DNA of 6,071 nt from Escherichia phage ID32. The notes beneath the pieces are model-generated. The model was not told the origin of the DNA and ran no database searches. It saw nothing but the letters and a program-made list of their open reading frames with translations. Location: sequence record NC_007819.1; one strand, given 5' to 3'. The stretch's first letter is position 1. The number at the start of each line of letters is the position of its first letter. Positions 4 through 6,071 of this stretch are shown in pieces. The translations under genes were made by a program, and so were the position numbers.

Positions 4-42
4 TTGACATACTCTAATCCCTTATGAGACTCTTGCTTCAAC
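4..42 (+). repeat. Degenerate upstream copy of the gene-A promoter region (TTGACAT...CTCTAA...CTTAT...TGCTTCA); left arm of an imperfect direct repeat with 700-738
   Basis: Direct comparison: 4-42 ttgacatactctaatcccttatgagactcttgcttca versus 700-738 ttgacattcctctaacccaccccttatagtgccttca. Perfect TTGACA -35 hexamer at 4-9, but the -10-like TTATGA sits only about 12 nt downstream, so promoter activity is doubtful. Confidence 0.4.
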
Positions 43-66
43 GAAATGACGCAGGAGTCTTTGCTT

Positions 67-435
67 ATGAAACCCGCACATCGCTTAACCCATCCGGTCC
101 TCGGTTCTTGGTTGTTTAAGTGCCCTGTTTATATCCGTTATGAACACCTTCATCATGGTCGTCTTATTAAGGTTCGTGCCGTTCGCGATTTGTCCCCTCG
201 CCAACAGCTTATTGCTAACCCTAAAAATTGCTTTGATGTTGTTATCGCTGAGATTGATGTTACCTATGGCTCCATCACTTGGTTTGATTATGAGCATGAG
301 GAGTATGACGAGTTTGATCCTGATGTTATAAATGGCCTCGTTAACTACATTGATATTCCTCACGTTATCCGTTCTGAGGAAGACCCTTCTGTCGATATTG
401 ATGATATGGATTGGCTTTATGAAATTGCGGAGTAA
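67..435 (+). CDS. Hypothetical protein, 122 aa, basic N-terminal half and strongly acidic C-terminal half (accessory ORF1 in the H-A region)
   Basis: ORF in the six-frame track (46..435). The ATG at 67 is preceded by AGGAG (55-59) at 7-nt spacing; the ATG at 46 is in frame but lacks an SD. TAA stop at 433-435 lies 3 nt before the next ATG. About 21 of the last 65 residues are D/E (e.g. YEHEEYDEFDPD, SEEDPSVDIDDMDW). No homolog recognised from memory. Confidence 0.55.
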   Translation: MKPAHRLTHPVLGSWLFKCPVYIRYEHLHHGRLIKVRAVRDLSPRQQLIANPKNCFDVVIAEIDVTYGSITWFDYEHEEYDEFDPDVINGLVNYIDIPHVIRSEEDPSVDIDDMDWLYEIAE

Positions 436-438
436 ATC

Positions 439-525
439 ATGGAAACTGTTGTCGGAAAATTTATTGCTTTGGCTATTGTTGCTCTTATGCTGTATGGAGT
501 TTCCCGTTTGATTAGTAGGACTTGA
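439..525 (+). CDS. Hypothetical 28-aa hydrophobic peptide, possible single-pass membrane peptide (METVVGKFIALAIVALMLYGVSRLISRT)
   Basis: ATG at 439 preceded by GGAG (429-432) at 6-nt spacing; TGA stop at 523-525 is 1 nt before the next ATG. Uninterrupted hydrophobic core FIALAIVALMLYGV. Below the ORF-track length cutoff, found by manual translation. Confidence 0.35.
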   Translation: METVVGKFIALAIVALMLYGVSRLISRT

Positions 526-526
526 A

Positions 527-703
527 ATGAAGTATTTTAGCCTTGTGGATGAACACTATGCTTATTGCCCTGATTCGCGCATTTTGCACATCACTCGTAG
601 TCGTGTTTCTGACCCTCGGTATGAGCGTCGTTTTCTTACTGATGAGGAGCATTTTGCGCTTTTGGATTGGTTAAAGAGTCGCCCAACATACATTAATTCT
701 TGA
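527..703 (+). CDS. Hypothetical 58-aa protein, Arg-rich (MKYFSLVDEHYAYCPDSRILHITRSRVSDPRYERRFLTDEEHFALLDWLKSRPTYINS)
   Basis: ATG at 527 preceded by AGGA (517-520) at 6-nt spacing; TGA stop at 701-703 lies inside the -35 hexamer of the gene-A promoter. Manual translation; not in the ORF track because under 60 aa. Confidence 0.45.
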   Translation: MKYFSLVDEHYAYCPDSRILHITRSRVSDPRYERRFLTDEEHFALLDWLKSRPTYINS

Positions 704-729
704 CATTCCTCTAACCCACCCCTTATAGT
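700..729 (+). promoter_or_regulatory. Sigma70-type promoter for gene A (P_A): TTGACA (700-705), 18-nt spacer, TATAGT (724-729)
   Basis: Consensus -35 hexamer and near-consensus -10 read directly; position immediately upstream of gene A matches the known P_A location in phiX174-like phages. Confidence 0.6.
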
Positions 730-759
730 GCCTTCAAAGTATTACTTTGAGGGCTTTTT
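730..759 (+). promoter_or_regulatory. Stem-loop plus T5 run in the gene-A leader; stem overlaps the gene-A SD (GAGG 749-752)
   Basis: GCCTTCAAAG (730-739) pairs with CTTTGAGGGC (745-754): 10 bp with one G-U, 5-nt loop, followed by TTTTT (755-759). Lies between the P_A -10 and the A start codon at 763. Confidence 0.5.
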
Positions 760-762
760 CCT

Positions 763-2247
763 ATGGCTACTGAATTATTCTCTGACGTTGTAAAAGCTAC
801 GTGGTCTCACGCTACTGCTAAGCACCCTCACCTTCGCATGGCTGTACAGGTTGATAATCGCAGTCGTCTTCTCTCTGATTTGGTTTACCAGCTGGAAAAA
901 CGCCTCTCTGAAGAGACTCATCTGGATGATGAGACTTATGCCCTTTATGAATCTCAAACCGGTCTTTTGGAAGACCATATGGCGCTGGTTCGGAAGTGTG
1001 CTGCCCAACTTGATAATAGTAACACTATAGACCACCGTACCCCTTTGGATGCCGAATGTGTTTTCCTGTTTGAAATGATTTGCCCAGGTGTTCGTTACGG
1101 TAAAACGTTGAATTCTCTTTGGACTAAGTATGTTGCTCAATGGCCTGAGAAGTTGATTCGTCAAGAGTTAGACATGGTTAAGCCTTTGTCCTTTAAGGAT
1201 GAAGTTGCTAAGTACATGGAGAAGATGCAGGAAAAAACACGCAAAAATCGCATGACTCAAAAAGTAATTAATGAGATGCGTATCGCTCACCAAAAGGGCT
1301 GGTTTTTCGTATTTGATACGTTGACACTTGCTGATGACCGTTTGCAGGCTTTTAATGAAAACCCCAATGCTCTTCGTGATTATTTCAGGACTGTTGGTCG
1401 AGCTGTTCTGCGCGCTGAAGGTCGTTCGGTTAAGGATTCCTACAACGACTGCTATCGCTATCTTTGTGTGCCGGAGTTTGGAGGCCAGCATGGCCGTCTT
1501 CATTGGCACGTTGTGCATATGGTGCGGACTCTTCCTTTGGGAAGTCACGACCCTAATTTCGGTCGCAAGGTTCGTAATTATCGCCAGATTAACTCGTTCC
1601 GTGGAATGTGGCCTTATGGCTTTACGCAACCGATAGCTGTACGCTATCAACATGATGCTTATTCTCGTAAAGGTTGGCTGTGGCCTGTTGACAAAACAGG
1701 AAAAGCAATGCAGAGTAAGCCCTATCAGGCGGTCGCATGGTATGTGACCAAATATGTGGCTAAGCAATCTGACCAGCGTCAGAAAGCTATTACTGAGAGA
1801 CAAAAAAAATGCAAGAATCCACTTATGGCAATCTGTCTGAAAAAGGAATTCAGAGTTCGCAGCAGCCGGAAGCTCGGAATGGAGTTACCGTCGATGGCGC
1901 ATCTCAGCAACAAAGTGCTTCTGGAGCTGAGCCGAATCAGCTTCGATTCCAGCCCTCTGTATCAGATAGTGAAAGAGAACGCCAAAAAGCAATTGACCTT
2001 GAACATCGGCGCGCTGCCTTTGCACGTCATTTTGGATGTGCGCCCGGAAGTGAGAAGTATGTTGAAAAATATCCGTCGTTTGATGAAAAAGACACCCGAG
2101 TTCAATTGGCAGAGTTCTATCGCTTCCATGACGGTCACCTTAAAAAATGGGGATATTTCTGATGAAGCACGTCAATACATTATTGATGCAGGAATTACGC
2201 CTTTTGATTTGCGAGCTAAAGCGACTCAAACTTTCGGCGGTAAGTGA
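763..2247 (+). CDS. A: Replication initiation protein A (HUH rolling-circle endonuclease), 494 aa
   Basis: Long ORF with strong similarity to phiX174 protein A as recalled (e.g. GWFFVFDTLTLADDRLQAFNENPNALRDYF, GRLHWHVVH HUH motif, paired catalytic tyrosines in AWYVTKYVAK, C-terminal FGGK). An in-frame TGA at 748-750 excludes any upstream extension. Confidence 0.95.
   Translation: MATELFSDVVKATWSHATAKHPHLRMAVQVDNRSRLLSDLVYQLEKRLSEETHLDDETYALYESQTGLLEDHMALVRKCAAQLDNSNTIDHRTPLDAECVFLFEMICPGVRYGKTLNSLWTKYVAQWPEKLIRQELDMVKPLSFKDEVAKYMEKMQEKTRKNRMTQKVINEMRIAHQKGWFFVFDTLTLADDRLQAFNENPNALRDYFRTVGRAVLRAEGRSVKDSYNDCYRYLCVPEFGGQHGRLHWHVVHMVRTLPLGSHDPNFGRKVRNYRQINSFRGMWPYGFTQPIAVRYQHDAYSRKGWLWPVDKTGKAMQSKPYQAVAWYVTKYVAKQSDQRQKAITERQKKCKNPLMAICLKKEFRVRSSRKLGMELPSMAHLSNKVLLELSRISFDSSPLYQIVKENAKKQLTLNIGALPLHVILDVRPEVRSMLKNIRRLMKKTPEFNWQSSIASMTVTLKNGDISDEARQYIIDAGITPFDLRAKATQTFGGK
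1006..1035 (+). other. Viral (+) strand rolling-circle origin; predicted protein A nick site between G1012 and A1013
   Basis: CAACTTGATAATAGTAACACTATAGACCAC closely matches the conserved 30-nt phiX174 origin (CAACTTG^ATATTAATAACACTATAGACCAC, from memory) and sits inside gene A as in phiX174. Confidence 0.8.
1216..2247 (+). CDS. A*: A* protein (in-frame internal initiation within gene A); start codon uncertain
   Basis: By analogy with phiX174, where A* begins at an internal Met near MKSRRGFA. In-frame ATGs in the homologous region are at 1216, 1225, 1252 and 1276; none has a convincing SD. Confidence 0.3.
   Translation: MEKMQEKTRKNRMTQKVINEMRIAHQKGWFFVFDTLTLADDRLQAFNENPNALRDYFRTVGRAVLRAEGRSVKDSYNDCYRYLCVPEFGGQHGRLHWHVVHMVRTLPLGSHDPNFGRKVRNYRQINSFRGMWPYGFTQPIAVRYQHDAYSRKGWLWPVDKTGKAMQSKPYQAVAWYVTKYVAKQSDQRQKAITERQKKCKNPLMAICLKKEFRVRSSRKLGMELPSMAHLSNKVLLELSRISFDSSPLYQIVKENAKKQLTLNIGALPLHVILDVRPEVRSMLKNIRRLMKKTPEFNWQSSIASMTVTLKNGDISDEARQYIIDAGITPFDLRAKATQTFGGK
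1809..2162 (+). CDS. B: Internal scaffolding protein B, 117 aa, overprinted within gene A
   Basis: ORF in the track; C-terminal AEFYRFHD...GYF matches phiX174 B; a different frame from A, as in phiX174. Confidence 0.85.
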   Translation: MQESTYGNLSEKGIQSSQQPEARNGVTVDGASQQQSASGAEPNQLRFQPSVSDSERERQKAIDLEHRRAAFARHFGCAPGSEKYVEKYPSFDEKDTRVQLAEFYRFHDGHLKKWGYF

Positions 2248-2323
2248 CCCGGATTTTTCTCAGGAGAAGATTCATGCTGAGCTCGACTCGTTACTACGCA
2301 AGTTATCGCGCTACTTTGACTAA
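2162..2323 (+). CDS. K: Protein K, 53 aa (MKHVNTLLMQELRLLICELKRLKLSAVSDPDFSQEKIHAELDSLLRKLSRYFD)
   Basis: Manual translation of the third frame. The ATG overlaps the B stop (TGATG at 2160-2164); the ORF spans the end of A and the start of C as in phiX174; QELRLLICEL resembles phiX174 K QELLLLVYEL. Under the ORF-track cutoff. Confidence 0.75.
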   Translation: MKHVNTLLMQELRLLICELKRLKLSAVSDPDFSQEKIHAELDSLLRKLSRYFD

Positions 2324-2480
2324 GCAGCTGATGTTTTTGACTAAAGCTGACTTTACCGATGATGATGAAAAATGGCTTAATGCCTTTGGTAATTTGCTCC
2401 GTCAGTGGTTTCAGATTGAGGATTGGAAAGGTAATCATAAAAAATTGCTTGACGATTTAAAAAAACGTGATTACATTTGA
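2274..2480 (+). CDS. C: Protein C (DNA packaging / stage III replication), 68 aa
   Basis: ATG at 2274 preceded by AGGAG (2262-2266) at 7 nt; DDDEKWLNAFGNLLRQWFQ matches phiX174 C (DEEKWLNMLGTFVKDWF). The track ORF begins at an upstream GTG (2244) that overlaps the A stop and is unlikely to be the real start. Confidence 0.85.
   Translation: MLSSTRYYASYRATLTKQLMFLTKADFTDDDEKWLNAFGNLLRQWFQIEDWKGNHKKLLDDLKKRDYI
2449..2477 (+). promoter_or_regulatory. Candidate sigma70 promoter for the D-E-J-F-G-H late genes (P_D): TTGACG, 17-nt spacer, TACATT
   Basis: Hexamers read directly at 2449-2454 and 2472-2477; located inside the 3' end of gene C just upstream of D, as for P_D in phiX174. Confidence 0.5.
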
Positions 2481-2523
2481 GCTGTTTCAAGGTTTCTTAC
2501 CCATTAAATGTTAGGAGAATGTT

Positions 2524-2982
2524 ATGTCTAATCTTGTTGCTACTGATGTTAATTTCGCTACTTCTGTTGCTGCTCTGAAAATGCTTCAGGCTTCAGCTGT
2601 TTTGGATATTACTGAAGAGGATTTCGATTTCCTTACTGGTGATAAAATTTGGATTGCTACCGACCGCAACCGTGCGCGTCGCTGTGTTGAGGCTTGTGTT
2701 TATGGAACGCTGGACTTTGTGGGATACCCTCGCTTTCCTGCTCCTGTTGAGTTTATTGCTGCCGTCATTGCTTATTATGTTCATCCCGTCAACATTCAGA
2801 CGGCCTGCCTCATCATGGAAGGCGCTGAGTTTACGGAAAACATTGTTAATGGCGTCGAGCGTCCGGTTAAAGCCGCTGAGCTCTTCGCGTACACCTTGCG
2901 TGTTAAGGCTGGATTCAAAGAAACGGTTCTGAGCGCTGAAGAGAATGCTCGTCAGAAACTTCGTGCAAGTGGAGTAATGTAA
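2524..2982 (+). CDS. D: External scaffolding protein D, 152 aa
   Basis: Near-identity over long stretches to phiX174 D (ARRCVEACVYGTLDFVGYPRFPAPVEFIAAVIAYYVHPVNIQTACLIMEGAEFTEN); AGGAG at 6 nt upstream. Confidence 0.96.
   Translation: MSNLVATDVNFATSVAALKMLQASAVLDITEEDFDFLTGDKIWIATDRNRARRCVEACVYGTLDFVGYPRFPAPVEFIAAVIAYYVHPVNIQTACLIMEGAEFTENIVNGVERPVKAAELFAYTLRVKAGFKETVLSAEENARQKLRASGVM
2702..2932 (+). CDS. E: Lysis protein E (MraY inhibitor), 76 aa, overprinted in +1 frame of D
   Basis: MERWTLWDTLAFLLLLSLLLPSLLIMFIPSTF matches the phiX174 E N-terminal transmembrane region; GAGG at 9 nt upstream. The track ORF starts at an upstream GTG (2639). Confidence 0.85.
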   Translation: MERWTLWDTLAFLLLLSLLLPSLLIMFIPSTFRRPASSWKALSLRKTLLMASSVRLKPLSSSRTPCVLRLDSKKRF

Positions 2983-2983
2983 T

Positions 2984-3058
2984 ATGAAGAAAGCTCGTCG
3001 TTCCCCTTCTCGTAAGAAAGGTGCCCGTCTCTGGTATGTAGGCGGTTCTCAATTTTAA
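2984..3058 (+). CDS. J: DNA-binding protein J, 24 aa (MKKARRSPSRKKGARLWYVGGSQF)
   Basis: Small, highly basic ORF immediately after D; the 24-aa length is characteristic of alpha3-like phages (phiX174 J is 38 aa). Confidence 0.9.
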   Translation: MKKARRSPSRKKGARLWYVGGSQF

Positions 3059-3063
3059 TTAAT

Positions 3064-3077
3064 GGGGCTTCGGCCCC
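3064..3077 (+). terminator. GGGGC-UUCG-GCCCC tetraloop hairpin in the J-F spacer (probable leaky terminator or mRNA-stabilising hairpin)
   Basis: Perfect 5-bp GC stem with a UUCG loop; followed by the F SD (AAGGA 3081-3085) and a T run. Confidence 0.55.
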
Positions 3078-3092
3078 TATAAGGATTTTTAA

Positions 3093-4376
3093 ATGTCAAA
3101 TGTACAGACTTCCGCTGAACGTATCCCTCATGACCTGTCTCATCTGGTTTTTGATGCAGGCAAAATTGGTCGTTTAAAAGTTGTTTCTTGGACTCCTGTT
3201 GTTGCAGGTGATTCTTTTGAGCTTGATATGATTGGCGCTATTCGCCTTTCTCCGCTTCGTCGTGGCCTTGCTGTTGACTCTCGCGTTGACCTGTTCACGT
3301 TTTATGTCCCTCATCGTCATGTATATGGTGAGCAGTGGATTGAGTTTATGAAGCAAGGTGTTGATGCTGCTCCTTTGGCCCCTGTTCAGTGCTCTCGTGG
3401 TTGGGATAGTGCTCAGTATCTTGCTACTATTCCGTCTAGTAACTTAAAGGTTCCTAAGTTTCTTCATCAAGGTTACCTGAACATTTACAATAACTACTTT
3501 AAAGCTCCGTGGATGGATGACCTGACTTATGCCAACCCGTCCAATATGGAAGGTGAAGATGTTCGTTTTGGTGTTCGTGCATGTAACTTGAAAACTATTT
3601 GGACCGCTCCGCTTCCTCCGGATACTGAAACCTCTCATTCTATGGAGACTGAAACCAACTCCATTGATATTATGGGTTTGCAGGCCGCTTATGCTCAATT
3701 ACATACTGAGCAGGAGCGTGATTACTTCATGACTCGTTATCGTGATATTGTTAACGAATTTGGTGGTAGCACTTCTTATGATGCGGATAATCGTCCTTTG
3801 CTTGTTATGCACTCTGAGTTCTGGGCCTCAGGCTATGACGTCGACGGCACCGACCAAAGTTCTCTTGGTCAGTTCTCCGGTCGTGTACAGCAGACCTTTA
3901 AGCATTCAGTACCGCGATTCTTCTGCCCTGAGCATGGTACTATGTTCACACTCGCATTGGTCCGCTTCCCGCCGACTCATGAAATGGAGATGCATTATTT
4001 AGTTGGTAAAGAAGATTTGACTTATACTGATTTGGCTTGTGACCCTGCTTTGATGGCTAACTTGCCTCCGCGTGAGGTTAATATGTCTCAGTTCTTCCAT
4101 TCTGGAAGTGCTAGCGCTAAGTTTAAGATCGCTGAAGGTCAGTGGTATCGTATGCAGCCTGACCGCGTTGCATTGCCGTATAACTATCTTGATGGTTTTC
4201 CGTTCTATAGTGCGATTCCGTCTAATGATATTAAACAGCGTGTTCTGGTTAATACTGATAACTACGATGAGGTTTTCCAGTCTATGCAACTTGCTCACTG
4301 GAATATGCAGACTAAGTTCAACTGCACGATTTATCGTAATATGCCGACCACTCGCGACTCTATTATGACCTCTTGA
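3093..4376 (+). CDS. F: Major capsid protein F, 427 aa
   Basis: Extensive similarity to phiX174 F (RLSPLRRGLA, FTFYVPHRHVYGEQWI, QGYLNIYNNYFKAPWM, YDADNRPLLVM, GTMFTLALVRFPP, TTRDSIMTS). Confidence 0.97.
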   Translation: MSNVQTSAERIPHDLSHLVFDAGKIGRLKVVSWTPVVAGDSFELDMIGAIRLSPLRRGLAVDSRVDLFTFYVPHRHVYGEQWIEFMKQGVDAAPLAPVQCSRGWDSAQYLATIPSSNLKVPKFLHQGYLNIYNNYFKAPWMDDLTYANPSNMEGEDVRFGVRACNLKTIWTAPLPPDTETSHSMETETNSIDIMGLQAAYAQLHTEQERDYFMTRYRDIVNEFGGSTSYDADNRPLLVMHSEFWASGYDVDGTDQSSLGQFSGRVQQTFKHSVPRFFCPEHGTMFTLALVRFPPTHEMEMHYLVGKEDLTYTDLACDPALMANLPPREVNMSQFFHSGSASAKFKIAEGQWYRMQPDRVALPYNYLDGFPFYSAIPSNDIKQRVLVNTDNYDEVFQSMQLAHWNMQTKFNCTIYRNMPTTRDSIMTS

Positions 4377-4382
4377 TTATGT

Positions 4383-4396
4383 GGGGCTTCGGCCCC
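4383..4396 (+). terminator. Second copy of the GGGGC-UUCG-GCCCC hairpin, in the F-G spacer
   Basis: Same stem-loop as at 3064-3077, again followed by AAGGATTTT and the next start codon. Confidence 0.55.
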
Positions 4397-4413
4397 CTTT
4401 AAGGATTTTGATT

Positions 4414-4959
4414 ATGTTTCAAGTTTATGTATCTAAACATGTTGCTCCGTTCACCTCTGTGAATCGTGCCTTTTCTATTGCCCCTGCTGCCAATCCGCAG
4501 GTTGTTAACTCTGGTGAGATTGTTGCAGGTCGTTCCACTTTCCGTATTGCGTCTTCCATTGGTGCTCCTTCTAATGGTAGTGGTTTTTCGTTTGTTCAGA
4601 TGATGGACCCTAACTCTCCTGATTCTCAGCAGGTTTTTTCTGTTGCTGCTTCGTTGTCCTTTAGTGTTGATTCGAATTATATTCCTTGTGTTGTTCGTTT
4701 TGAGAGCACTGTTGCTCAGCCTACCAGCTTTGATATTGCAACCGCTGATTTTATTCCGGTTGAGGCTTCTGCCCTTTCTCCTCGTGCGCTTAGCGTTCGC
4801 GATTGTGTTACCGTTGATGTTAAGCCTCGTACTGAAGGCAATAATGTTTTTGTTGGTGTGGTTTTCTTCTCTGCTGCCGCTAATGCTGGTAATGTCACTG
4901 GTGTTGTTTCGATGGCTCAGGTTGACCACGAAGTTACAGCTTTGCAGCCGCTTAAATAA
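4414..4959 (+). CDS. G: Major spike protein G, 181 aa
   Basis: MFQ..SKH N-terminus and C-terminal ALQPLK match phiX174 G; AAGGA (4401-4405) at 8 nt upstream. The track ORF starts at a GTG (4381) inside the hairpin and is not the likely start. Confidence 0.9.
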   Translation: MFQVYVSKHVAPFTSVNRAFSIAPAANPQVVNSGEIVAGRSTFRIASSIGAPSNGSGFSFVQMMDPNSPDSQQVFSVAASLSFSVDSNYIPCVVRFESTVAQPTSFDIATADFIPVEASALSPRALSVRDCVTVDVKPRTEGNNVFVGVVFFSAAANAGNVTGVVSMAQVDHEVTALQPLK

Positions 4960-4986
4960 AAGGCTGCCGCACTCCCGGTTAGATGC

Positions 4987-5063
4987 CTGCCCAGTGTAGG
5001 GCAGACCGAGCCGTACGGAGATACCCGATAAACTAGGAACGTGGAAGGCGCAAGCCGCCTTCC
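4987..5063 (+). other. Stem-loop cluster in the 134-nt G-H spacer; candidate primase-dependent complementary (-) strand origin
   Basis: CTGCCC-agtgta-GGGCAG (4987-5004), palindrome CCGTACGG (5011-5018) and GGAAGGCG-caagc-CGCCTTCC (5043-5063) read directly. I recall St-1/phiK/alpha3 minus-strand origins being mapped between G and H, but cannot confirm this. Confidence 0.45.
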
Positions 5064-5093
5064 CTCCTGCTAAGCCCAAAAGGAGTTACAGCG

Positions 5094-6071
5094 ATGTTAG
5101 GTGCCGTTGTAGGTGGTATTGCTTCAGCCTTAGCTGGTGGAGCCGCTTCTAAGCTGTTTGGTGGTAAACCTGCCGCTCAAGCCGCTACCGAGTCCTCTGG
5201 CCTTTCTAATGGTCAAGGTGTTATTGGTATGGATCAAGATGCCGGTATTCAGTCCGCTATTCAGGGCTCAAATGTCCCAAATGGTCAGATTCCTGCTCCC
5301 ACTACCACAGGCGGTGTTATGTCTGATGCTGGCAATATGATTAAGAATGCTGGTAAAGATTTGCTTGATGGTGTCATGACTGCTGGTAGTGACCGAGTTA
5401 AGCAGGCTTTGATTGATAAGTTAGGTGGCAATAATGCAAAGAGACAAGGACAAGCAACCCGTGATTACTTGGCTGCGGCCTTCCCTGAGCTCAACGCATG
5501 GGAGCGTGCTGGAGCTGGTGCTTCCGGCGCCGGTTTGGAATCTTCCAGCCAGGACCAACAGAAAGAATTAATGCGGATGCAGCTGGACAACCAGAAAGAT
5601 ATTGCGAAGATGCAGATGCAGAATAATTTGCAGATTGCAGGCATCCAGTCCGCTACTTCTCGTCAAAATACGAAGGATTCTGTTTATGCTCAGAATGAAA
5701 TGCTTCAGTACAATCAGCGTGAGTCGCAAGCGCGTGTTGAGTCCATCCTTGCCAACACTGACCTTACGGCTAAACAGGCCACCCATGAAATTATGAGAAT
5801 GGCTCTTACTCGTGCTCAGGAAACTGGTCAGCATTTGACTAACTCTCAGATTATGGCATTGGAGAAAAAGGTTTATGCAGAAATCGGAAAAATTCACCAA
5901 GATACTCAAAACGCTCGTTATGGTAGCTCTCAAGTTACTGCTGCGGCGAAAGATGTTACAAATATGATTTCTGATGCTGCTGGTGGTGTTGCCGATTGGG
6001 CTTCTCAGCAGTGGAATTCTTTCTTTAAGGATGGCAAGTCTAATGGTATTCCTTTAAATACCCGAAAATAG
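5094..6071 (+). CDS. H: Minor spike / DNA pilot protein H, 325 aa
   Basis: Gly/Ala-rich N-terminus (GGIASALAGGA.SKLFGG) and long matches to phiX174 H (TRDYLAAAFPELNAWERAGA, IAGIQSATSRQNTKD.VYAQNEML, QNARYGSS); AGGAG at 8 nt upstream; stop is the last codon of the window. Confidence 0.93.
   Translation: MLGAVVGGIASALAGGAASKLFGGKPAAQAATESSGLSNGQGVIGMDQDAGIQSAIQGSNVPNGQIPAPTTTGGVMSDAGNMIKNAGKDLLDGVMTAGSDRVKQALIDKLGGNNAKRQGQATRDYLAAAFPELNAWERAGAGASGAGLESSSQDQQKELMRMQLDNQKDIAKMQMQNNLQIAGIQSATSRQNTKDSVYAQNEMLQYNQRESQARVESILANTDLTAKQATHEIMRMALTRAQETGQHLTNSQIMALEKKVYAEIGKIHQDTQNARYGSSQVTAAAKDVTNMISDAAGGVADWASQQWNSFFKDGKSNGIPLNTRK

Follow-up and report, generated by a model that had tools for sequence, protein, structure and literature searches.

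Two conserved junctions, probably of the pA-T_H type, flank three accessory genes between genes H and A of alpha3-like microviruses

The junction between genes H and A of the microviruses phiX174 and G4 is occupied by a single compact element, pA-T_H, in which a TTGACA −35 box, a −10 box, a GC-rich hairpin carrying the Shine–Dalgarno (SD) sequence of the next gene, a run of T residues and an ATG start codon are fitted into 58–63 nucleotides (nt). In both phages the SD sequence reads GGAGG and is followed by the ATG. In phiX174 the net effect of the combined element is termination, transcription changing 0.29-fold between H and A (bioRxiv 10.1101/2020.03.05.979765). The annotated start site of phiX174, position 3962, lies inside the 5′ arm of the pA-T_H hairpin, and therefore transcripts begun at pA cannot form the terminator, while those coming in from upstream can. 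Here we describe how the H-A region of Escherichia phage ID32 compares with this arrangement. The stretch analyzed, hereafter the window, is record NC_007819.1 at its full length of 6,071 nt, a complete genome of an alpha3-like microvirus (Alphatrevirus) opened just past the end of gene H. Its H-A region occupies positions 1–762 and holds two elements of this kind, arm 1 (1–66) and arm 2 (697–762), both on the + strand.

In every alpha3-like genome that we collected the H-A region measures 729–870 nt, as opposed to junctions of only 63 and 58 nt in phiX174 and G4, respectively, which bears out an earlier sequence-only reading of this DNA that the insert is absent from the H-A junction of the latter two phages. 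Instead of the one unit of phiX174 and G4, the alpha3-like phages possess two, which are separated by about 700 nt and enclose three genes. The same reading had proposed that a block of open reading frames (ORFs) is flanked by two arms, and two elements of the same design were indeed confirmed at these places. Each is composed of a TTGACA or TTGACT box, a stable hairpin with the SD sequence of the next gene in its 3′ arm, a T-run and an ATG. Both arms show this layout in all 26 distinct H-A regions of alpha3-like phages that make up our comparison set (arm 2 of phage NC35 carries a 29-nt deletion, see below), and a search of these 26 regions for relatives with the ORFs but without the upstream arm, a result that the sequence-only reading had named as refuting its proposal, found none. 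We consider it probable that the arms are two separate, individually conserved junctions of the pA-T_H type that flank a three-gene accessory block.

This two-junction feature is ordinary for the genus, is a variant of the known phiX174/G4 element, and can be seen in public sequences dating back to the 1980s. Alpha3, St-1, phiK and the alpha3-like isolates of Rokyta (X60322, M25640, DQ0798xx, MK629527) have the same region, arms and ORFs at 78–91% identity. The 1980s record of the alpha3 H gene, M25640, marks ribosome-binding sites at the AGGAG of arm 1 and further ones downstream, and the Lilleven record lists three hypothetical proteins in the H-A region. Most GenBank records leave the region without annotation, and our literature search did not find a description of the alpha3 H-A region.

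Arm 2, which immediately precedes gene A, is evidently the true ortholog of pA-T_H. This assignment follows from a covariance model built on arm 2 of 13 other alpha3-like genomes together with the units of G4, ID18, ID2 and phiX174. The model left arm 2 of the window out, and nevertheless matched it with 73.2 bits and an E value of 1e-13. The predicted pA promoter (700–729, + strand) is composed of TTGACA at 700–705, an 18-nt spacer and TATAGT at 724–729. It matches the consensus at 11 of 12 positions and is the best sigma-70 match of the genome, in agreement with the near-consensus promoter that the sequence-only reading had placed in the downstream copy. A hairpin follows at 730–754 with five T residues at 755–759 (feature 730–759, + strand); it was called by a terminator scan and has a predicted RNA folding energy of −15.3 kcal/mol (z = −3.75). 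The SD sequence of gene A, GAGGG, lies at 749–753 in the 3′ arm of this hairpin, and the ATG at 763. Compensatory changes are found in 5 of the 11 pairs of the stem, and the covariation score exceeds that of 500 of 500 shuffles. Across the clade, identity reaches 0.987 in both the −35 and the −10 box of arm 2, compared with 0.748 in the spacer.

Arm 2 of the window aligns colinearly, and free of insertions or deletions, with its counterparts across the clade. It has a different spacer, and TATAGT replaces a near-invariant TATATT. The spacer and −10 allele of the window, TTCCTCTAACCCACCCCT-TATAGT, had no match in any of the collections searched, including IMG/VR, and a look-up of the window's gene A protein, gpA, likewise returned no record. 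The surrounding stretch 690–770 has no close relative, with a best identity of 84.8% to two IMG/VR contigs. A metagenome scan for arm 2 returned 77 matches, nearly all of them due to chance and only one of them from a microvirus. In NC35 a 29-nt deletion at approximately 700–729, equivalent to 707–735 of the window, removes the −10 box of pA together with the 5′ half of the hairpin in arm 2. With this −10 box gone, transcription of gene A in NC35 must originate upstream, at arm 1 or through read-through.

Arm 1 (1–66, + strand) is a composite junction between the stop codon of H and the start of ORF1, and is found in 26 of 26 distinct H-A regions. It begins with a −35-type box, TTGACA, at 4–9 (+ strand), of which TTGAC is invariant in the 26 regions and the sixth base is A or T. 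The box stands 3 nt past the H stop codon, the exact offset seen in G4, ID18 and ID2. Mean pairwise identity is 0.965 in the box, 0.735 in the adjacent spacer, and 0.655 at third codon positions of ORF1, which served as a proxy for neutral change. Even the genome L041, which comes from sequencing run SRR20337160 and whose strongly diverged ORF1 matches the family profile only distantly (E = 4.5e-16), has kept TTGAC. Because both arms share this conservation profile, with the box far more conserved than the spacer, arm 1 is under selection rather than a decaying copy.

The box is followed by a hairpin at 26–61 (+ strand) with an 11-bp lower stem and 3 further base pairs, supported by RNA folding (−18.9 kcal/mol, z = −3.6) and by an alignment-based fold. 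Nine of the lower pairs barely vary, and two upper pairs stay paired through compensatory changes. The SD sequence of ORF1, AGGAG, lies at 53–57 in the 3′ arm of the hairpin, and its ATG at 67. The T-rich tail at 58–66 is interrupted by GC in the window (TTTGCTT) and is an unbroken run of five to six T residues in most relatives. Compared with the phiX174/G4 element, arm 1 has 8 nt less between its −35 box and its hairpin, which overlaps the one −10 sequence that is plausible. Taken together, the layout suggests that arm 1 most likely ends H transcripts and starts the translation of ORF1.

Arm 1 may also be a weak promoter, TTGACA-16-GAGACT. The candidate −10 sequence, GAGACT at 26–31 (+ strand), stands 16 nt from the −35 box, overlaps the 5′ arm of the hairpin, and has an A as the second and a T as the sixth base of the hexamer. 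With an approximate sigma-70 weight matrix the pair scored 10.6 bits, rank 4 of roughly 6100 + strand positions, compared with 10.0 bits for the verified pA of phiX174, for which the start predicted by the matrix falls at the annotated 3962. The three sites that outrank it, at 700, 2449 and 1688, are at the expected places of pA, pD and pB. According to the sequence-only reading, the upstream copy had a shortened spacer and was probably a poor promoter. A TATGAG does occur at 23–28, 13 nt from TTGACA, but the label of poor promoter hinges on this pairing and is not supported: GAGACT at 16 nt scores as high as the verified pA of phiX174.

The second and third best + strand sigma-70 candidates of the window are TTGACA-17-CAGAGT and TTGACG-17-TACATT (1688–1716 and 2449–2477). 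The site at 1688–1716 is where pB is expected, inside gene A and upstream of B, and that at 2449–2477 is at the place of pD, upstream of D.

The covariance model was also applied to arm 1. With filters off, in a search of 18 kb comprising three genomes, arm 1 scored 8.8–13.8 bits with E values of 0.3–3.4, and was not detected with default filters. It is the best non-self hit on the + strand and extends over the full length of the model, and for a location fixed beforehand the match is nominally significant.

Several observations weigh against assigning terminator and promoter functions to arm 1. Its covariance-model score is not significant genome-wide. In the window its T-run is interrupted, and its hairpin was not called by the terminator scan. 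The sigma-70 weight matrix is approximate and was assembled from consensus frequencies; in phiX174 it ranks unverified sites high and misses pB. GAGACT agrees with the consensus at only 3 of 6 bases, and because it also pairs with the SD sequence in the stem, its invariance is a confounded sign of promoter function. Finally, we found no transcription data for alpha3-like phages in the literature, and the terminator and promoter roles are read from sequence. The promoter candidate in arm 1 is accordingly presented as a lead, not a result.

If the two junctions work as their layout suggests, arm 1 would end late H transcripts and provide the ribosome site for ORF1, which heads the three translationally linked accessory genes present in every alpha3-like phage. 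Arm 1 could possibly also fire as a weak promoter, with a start about 7 nt after GAGACT in the hairpin loop, as at pA; transcripts begun in the loop would escape termination. Arm 2 would stop transcripts arriving from upstream and start low-level transcription of gene A within its own hairpin.

The arms had been described in the sequence-only reading as an imperfect direct repeat of promoter sequence. The motifs behind this description are real: TTGACAT (4–10 and 700–706), CTCTAA (12–17 and 709–714), CTTAT (21–25 and 722–726), and TGCTTCA (34–40) with its counterpart TGCCTTCA (729–736) were confirmed at these + strand coordinates, in the same order in both arms. As a repeat, however, they are weak. 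Gapped local alignment of the two 66-nt stretches (1–66 and 697–762) gave a score of 24.5, against 13.9 ± 2.4 for dinucleotide-preserving shuffles (z = 4.5), a value reached by 14 of 5000 and 4 of 3000 shuffles in two runs. When the −35 hexamer was taken out, the remainder was no better than chance (z = 1.65, reached by 207 of 3000 shuffles), an outcome that the sequence-only reading had itself listed among those that would refute it. An unrelated region near position 2460 aligned to arm 2 with a score of 23.5, almost equal to that of arm 1. Only 7 nt are perfectly shared between the arms, and an ungapped repeat finder did not report them as a family, returning short pairs at chance level only.

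Moreover, the similarity is absent from relatives. None of eight other alpha3-like genomes (alpha3, WA13, NC29, NC28 and four metagenomic ones) showed arm-arm similarity above background (z from −0.7 to 1.4). In an all-against-all table of arms, only arm 2 of the window scored above background against arm 1 sequences, and it scored higher against arm 1 of WA13, alpha3 and ID62 (32–34.5) than against its own arm 1. Because the resemblance is confined to the window, and arm 2 of the window is without a close relative, the repeat is largely a property of one fast-evolving spacer allele. On these comparisons, the resemblance is best described as mostly the TTGACA hexamer, to which are added the richness of the spacers in C and T and an arm 2 spacer allele specific to this lineage, situated in a recombinant patch of the mosaic genome. 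The alignments argue that the arms are not a preserved direct repeat and not a real sequence duplication.

The sequence-only reading had further suggested that the repeats could mediate deletion of the module by recombination. This was not borne out: no deletion product was present among the 26 distinct H-A regions, all of which retain both arms and ORF1–3, or in IMG/VR, where the predicted fusion product, TTGTTGACA-N13-CCCTCTATATT, had 0 matches. The sole alpha3-like arm 2 from the metagenome scan is intact, and the only natural lesion, the 29-nt deletion of NC35, falls within arm 2 and not between the arms. Homologous recombination between the arms is also unsupported because so little sequence is perfectly shared.

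How two similar junctions came to flank the block can be explained in several ways. The account that survives best, to which we give somewhat less than an even chance, is that arm 1 arose on its own or came in independently, as part of the ORF block for instance, and that its likeness to arm 2 comes from function and chance. The same parts are required at any junction that has to end one transcript, begin another and start translation, and the alignment results fit this well: arm-arm similarity is at shuffle background in all relatives, the unrelated region near 2460 is nearly as good a match to arm 2 (23.5 versus 24.5), the spacers evolve near-neutrally, and the covariance-model E values of arm 1 are 0.3–3.4. 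More difficult to accommodate is the box itself. A terminator with a ribosome site needs no TTGACA, yet the box is invariant in arm 1 and stands at the offset from the H stop codon seen in G4. Furthermore, TTGACA occurs only four times on the + strand, and a chance copy within about 20 nt upstream of a hairpin is unlikely.

An ancient duplication, in line with the suggestion of the sequence-only reading that the module was inserted at, or duplicated from, the ancestral short H-A promoter region, is an origin that we regard as possible and on balance doubtful. Here a pA-T_H unit of about 60 nt, or its −35 and spacer part, would have been doubled as the ORF block arose or was inserted at the short ancestral junction, leaving a copy on either side, and the copies would have diverged almost beyond recognition. 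Both arms and the single phiX174/G4 unit agree in the order of their parts. The −35 box of arm 1 has kept the 3-nt distance from the H stop codon found in G4, ID18 and ID2, while the A-proximal half of the unit is kept in arm 2. In addition, the covariance model built from arm 2 and the units of phiX174 and G4 has its highest non-self + strand score at arm 1, and a pattern of CTAA(A), CCCT and TAT is common to both spacers.

Against such a duplication, similarity outside the −35 hexamer falls short of significance in the window (z = 1.65) and is lacking in the eight relatives. The hairpins differ, GAGACTC.../...GGAGTCT in arm 1 versus GCCCTC.../...GAGGGC in arm 2, and the spacing of −35 box and hairpin is not the same in the two arms, the difference being 8 nt. 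The ORFs are unlike A, H or other phage genes, and no simple tandem duplication of coding sequence is visible. The shuffle test is, however, low-powered: when arm 2 was compared with its true orthologs, the junctions of G4 and phiX174, z values were only 0.05–3.8, several of them near zero. Since the spacers are near-neutral and orthologs themselves score low, the sequence test cannot decide on duplication. The short junction is found only in other genera (phiX174, G4), and without an outgroup insertion and deletion are indistinguishable. Both origins are compatible with the functional account of two individually conserved pA-T_H-type junctions.

That account would change if the box of arm 1 were not transcriptional at all. 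The H-A intergenic region of phiX174 may interact with a limiting host replication component and gathers parallel adaptive substitutions (PMC3606162), and the box could by analogy be a binding site for such a factor; arm 1 is more conserved than the adjoining coding sequence. We think this very unlikely. The phiX174 substitutions also fall in the H terminator (PMC3606162), the conserved bases of arm 1 are exactly the −35 hexamer and the SD-bearing stem, and there is no direct evidence for a site of this kind in any alpha3-like phage.

Least likely of all, recent patchy copying of arm 1 into arm 2 in the lineage of the window, by gene conversion or template switching, would explain why arm 2 of the window outscores any other arm 2 against arm 1 of WA13, alpha3 and ID62 (32–34.5) and why its alignable spacer differences from contig L017 (for example TT at 706–707, CC at 721–722, G at 728) all match the arm 1 consensus, but arm 2 keeps the clade length and the 18-nt spacing with no insertion or deletion transferred, limits that copying would hardly be expected to observe, the spacer varies freely in every lineage, the window was chosen for the resemblance (a selection bias), and the matching differences were counted after the alignment had been chosen.

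Between the two conserved junctions lie three ORFs on the + strand. ORF1 (67–435) encodes 122 amino acids and is an orphan confined to Alphatrevirus, with identities of 0.817, 0.867 and 0.655 at the first, second and third codon positions. ORF2 (439–525) encodes a hydrophobic peptide of 28 amino acids (29–30 in relatives), with the second codon position most conserved (0.958). ORF3 (527–703) encodes 58 amino acids, with codon-position identities of 0.920, 0.964 and 0.795. In ORF1 and ORF3 the third codon position is thus the least conserved, the pattern of coding sequence. The ORFs are tightly packed, each with a purine-rich motif resembling a ribosome site upstream (GGAG, AGGA). ORF3 overlaps the end of ORF2 in most relatives, and its TGA stop codon (701–703) falls inside the −35 box of arm 2.

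Homologs of ORF1–3 among 5.8 billion proteins came exclusively from microvirus contigs of roughly 6 kb, and among phage records from only the 25 alpha3-like ones. No match, and hence no donor, was found in Escherichia coli genomes, plasmids or other phages, and searches of the ORFs and the region against Pfam, PHROGs, PADLOC and Rfam gave no match. An AlphaFold2 (AF2) model of ORF1 was predicted with a predicted local distance difference test score (pLDDT) of 90.8 and a predicted template modeling score (pTM) of 0.82, and its fold had no match in the PDB. ORF2 is predicted to be a single-helix hydrophobic peptide of 28–30 amino acids throughout the genus, and the model of ORF3 has four strands and a helix; no family or structure match was found for either. 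The GC content of the ORF block (0.39–0.44) is not distinct from that of the rest of the genome (roughly 0.37–0.54), and the origin of the block is not recent.

We rejected the possibility that the block derives from A, H or other phage genes by copying and divergence, as tblastn and blastn searches covering the rest of the genome, phiX174, G4, ID18 and ID2 returned chance hits only.

ORF1 is frameshifted in two of the records. In St-1 (65–432) this either is a sequencing error or signals that the phage can do without ORF1 in the laboratory. Those of the 1992 alpha3 record are sequencing errors, because alpha3 as resequenced (DQ085810.2) has an intact ORF1.

The flanking genes are on the + strand as well. 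Gene H, upstream, encodes the minor spike or pilot protein (5094–6071) and was assigned from the ORF list, the H annotation in WA13 and alpha3, and Pfam Microvir_H on relatives; its stop codon forms the last bases of the window. Gene A, the replication initiator (763–2247), lies downstream and was assigned from the ORF list and the annotation of relatives.

Full-length identity of the window to WA13 is 94%, and 23 public records each span 80% or more of the window. The genome itself differs from those of alpha3, St-1, phiK and the Rokyta isolates in being a new recombinant mosaic: it is WA13-like over approximately 1000–5150 (97–100%), ID21-like over approximately 5250–6071 and 1–450, and NC29-like over 451–600. 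The stretch 690–900 is nearest to two IMG/VR contigs, L017 and L020, with 92–93% identity over the first part of gene A (770–900).

Two other intergenic sites were noted. The G-H intergenic region (4951–5100) is 98% identical to that of alpha3, and the flanking G and H coding sequence only 50–76%; we take this region to be the probable primase-dependent complementary-strand origin described for alpha3, St-1 and phiK. The C-D intergenic region is a second variable site in the genus, with about 190 extra nt in NC29 (approximately 2480–2712) and about 30 in NC3 relative to the window.

The morons of tailed phages are accessory genes that sit between conserved genes and carry their own promoter and terminator. 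The H-A block is like them in being an accessory block that is absent from sister genera at the same site, with a terminator downstream and a promoter-like box upstream. It differs in that it is fixed genus-wide, has a composition like that of the genome, has an unproven upstream promoter, and resides in a 6-kb single-stranded DNA phage. A more far-reaching version of our account, which we offer as speculation and consider rather improbable, is that the block is a self-contained expression cassette built by copying the phage's own pA-T_H. Arm 1 would then act as a fourth functional promoter, joined to the H terminator, and drive three orphan genes independently of gene A, one of them for a protein whose fold is not seen in the PDB, and the two junctions would let the phage set the levels of its accessory genes and of its replication gene separately.

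The resemblance of the arms is no evidence of recent duplication or of instability. More interesting than the repeat is a by-product of its analysis, namely the uncharacterized ORFs, one of which has a confident predicted fold unmatched among solved structures. The Bullavirinae are treated as fully annotated models, and yet this genus contains about 700 nt with three conserved, uncharacterized genes, set between two junctions of the best-known regulatory type in the family. If arm 1 is both terminator and promoter, the H-A region would be a compact natural case of a tiny genome adding and insulating an expression unit by reusing a control module.

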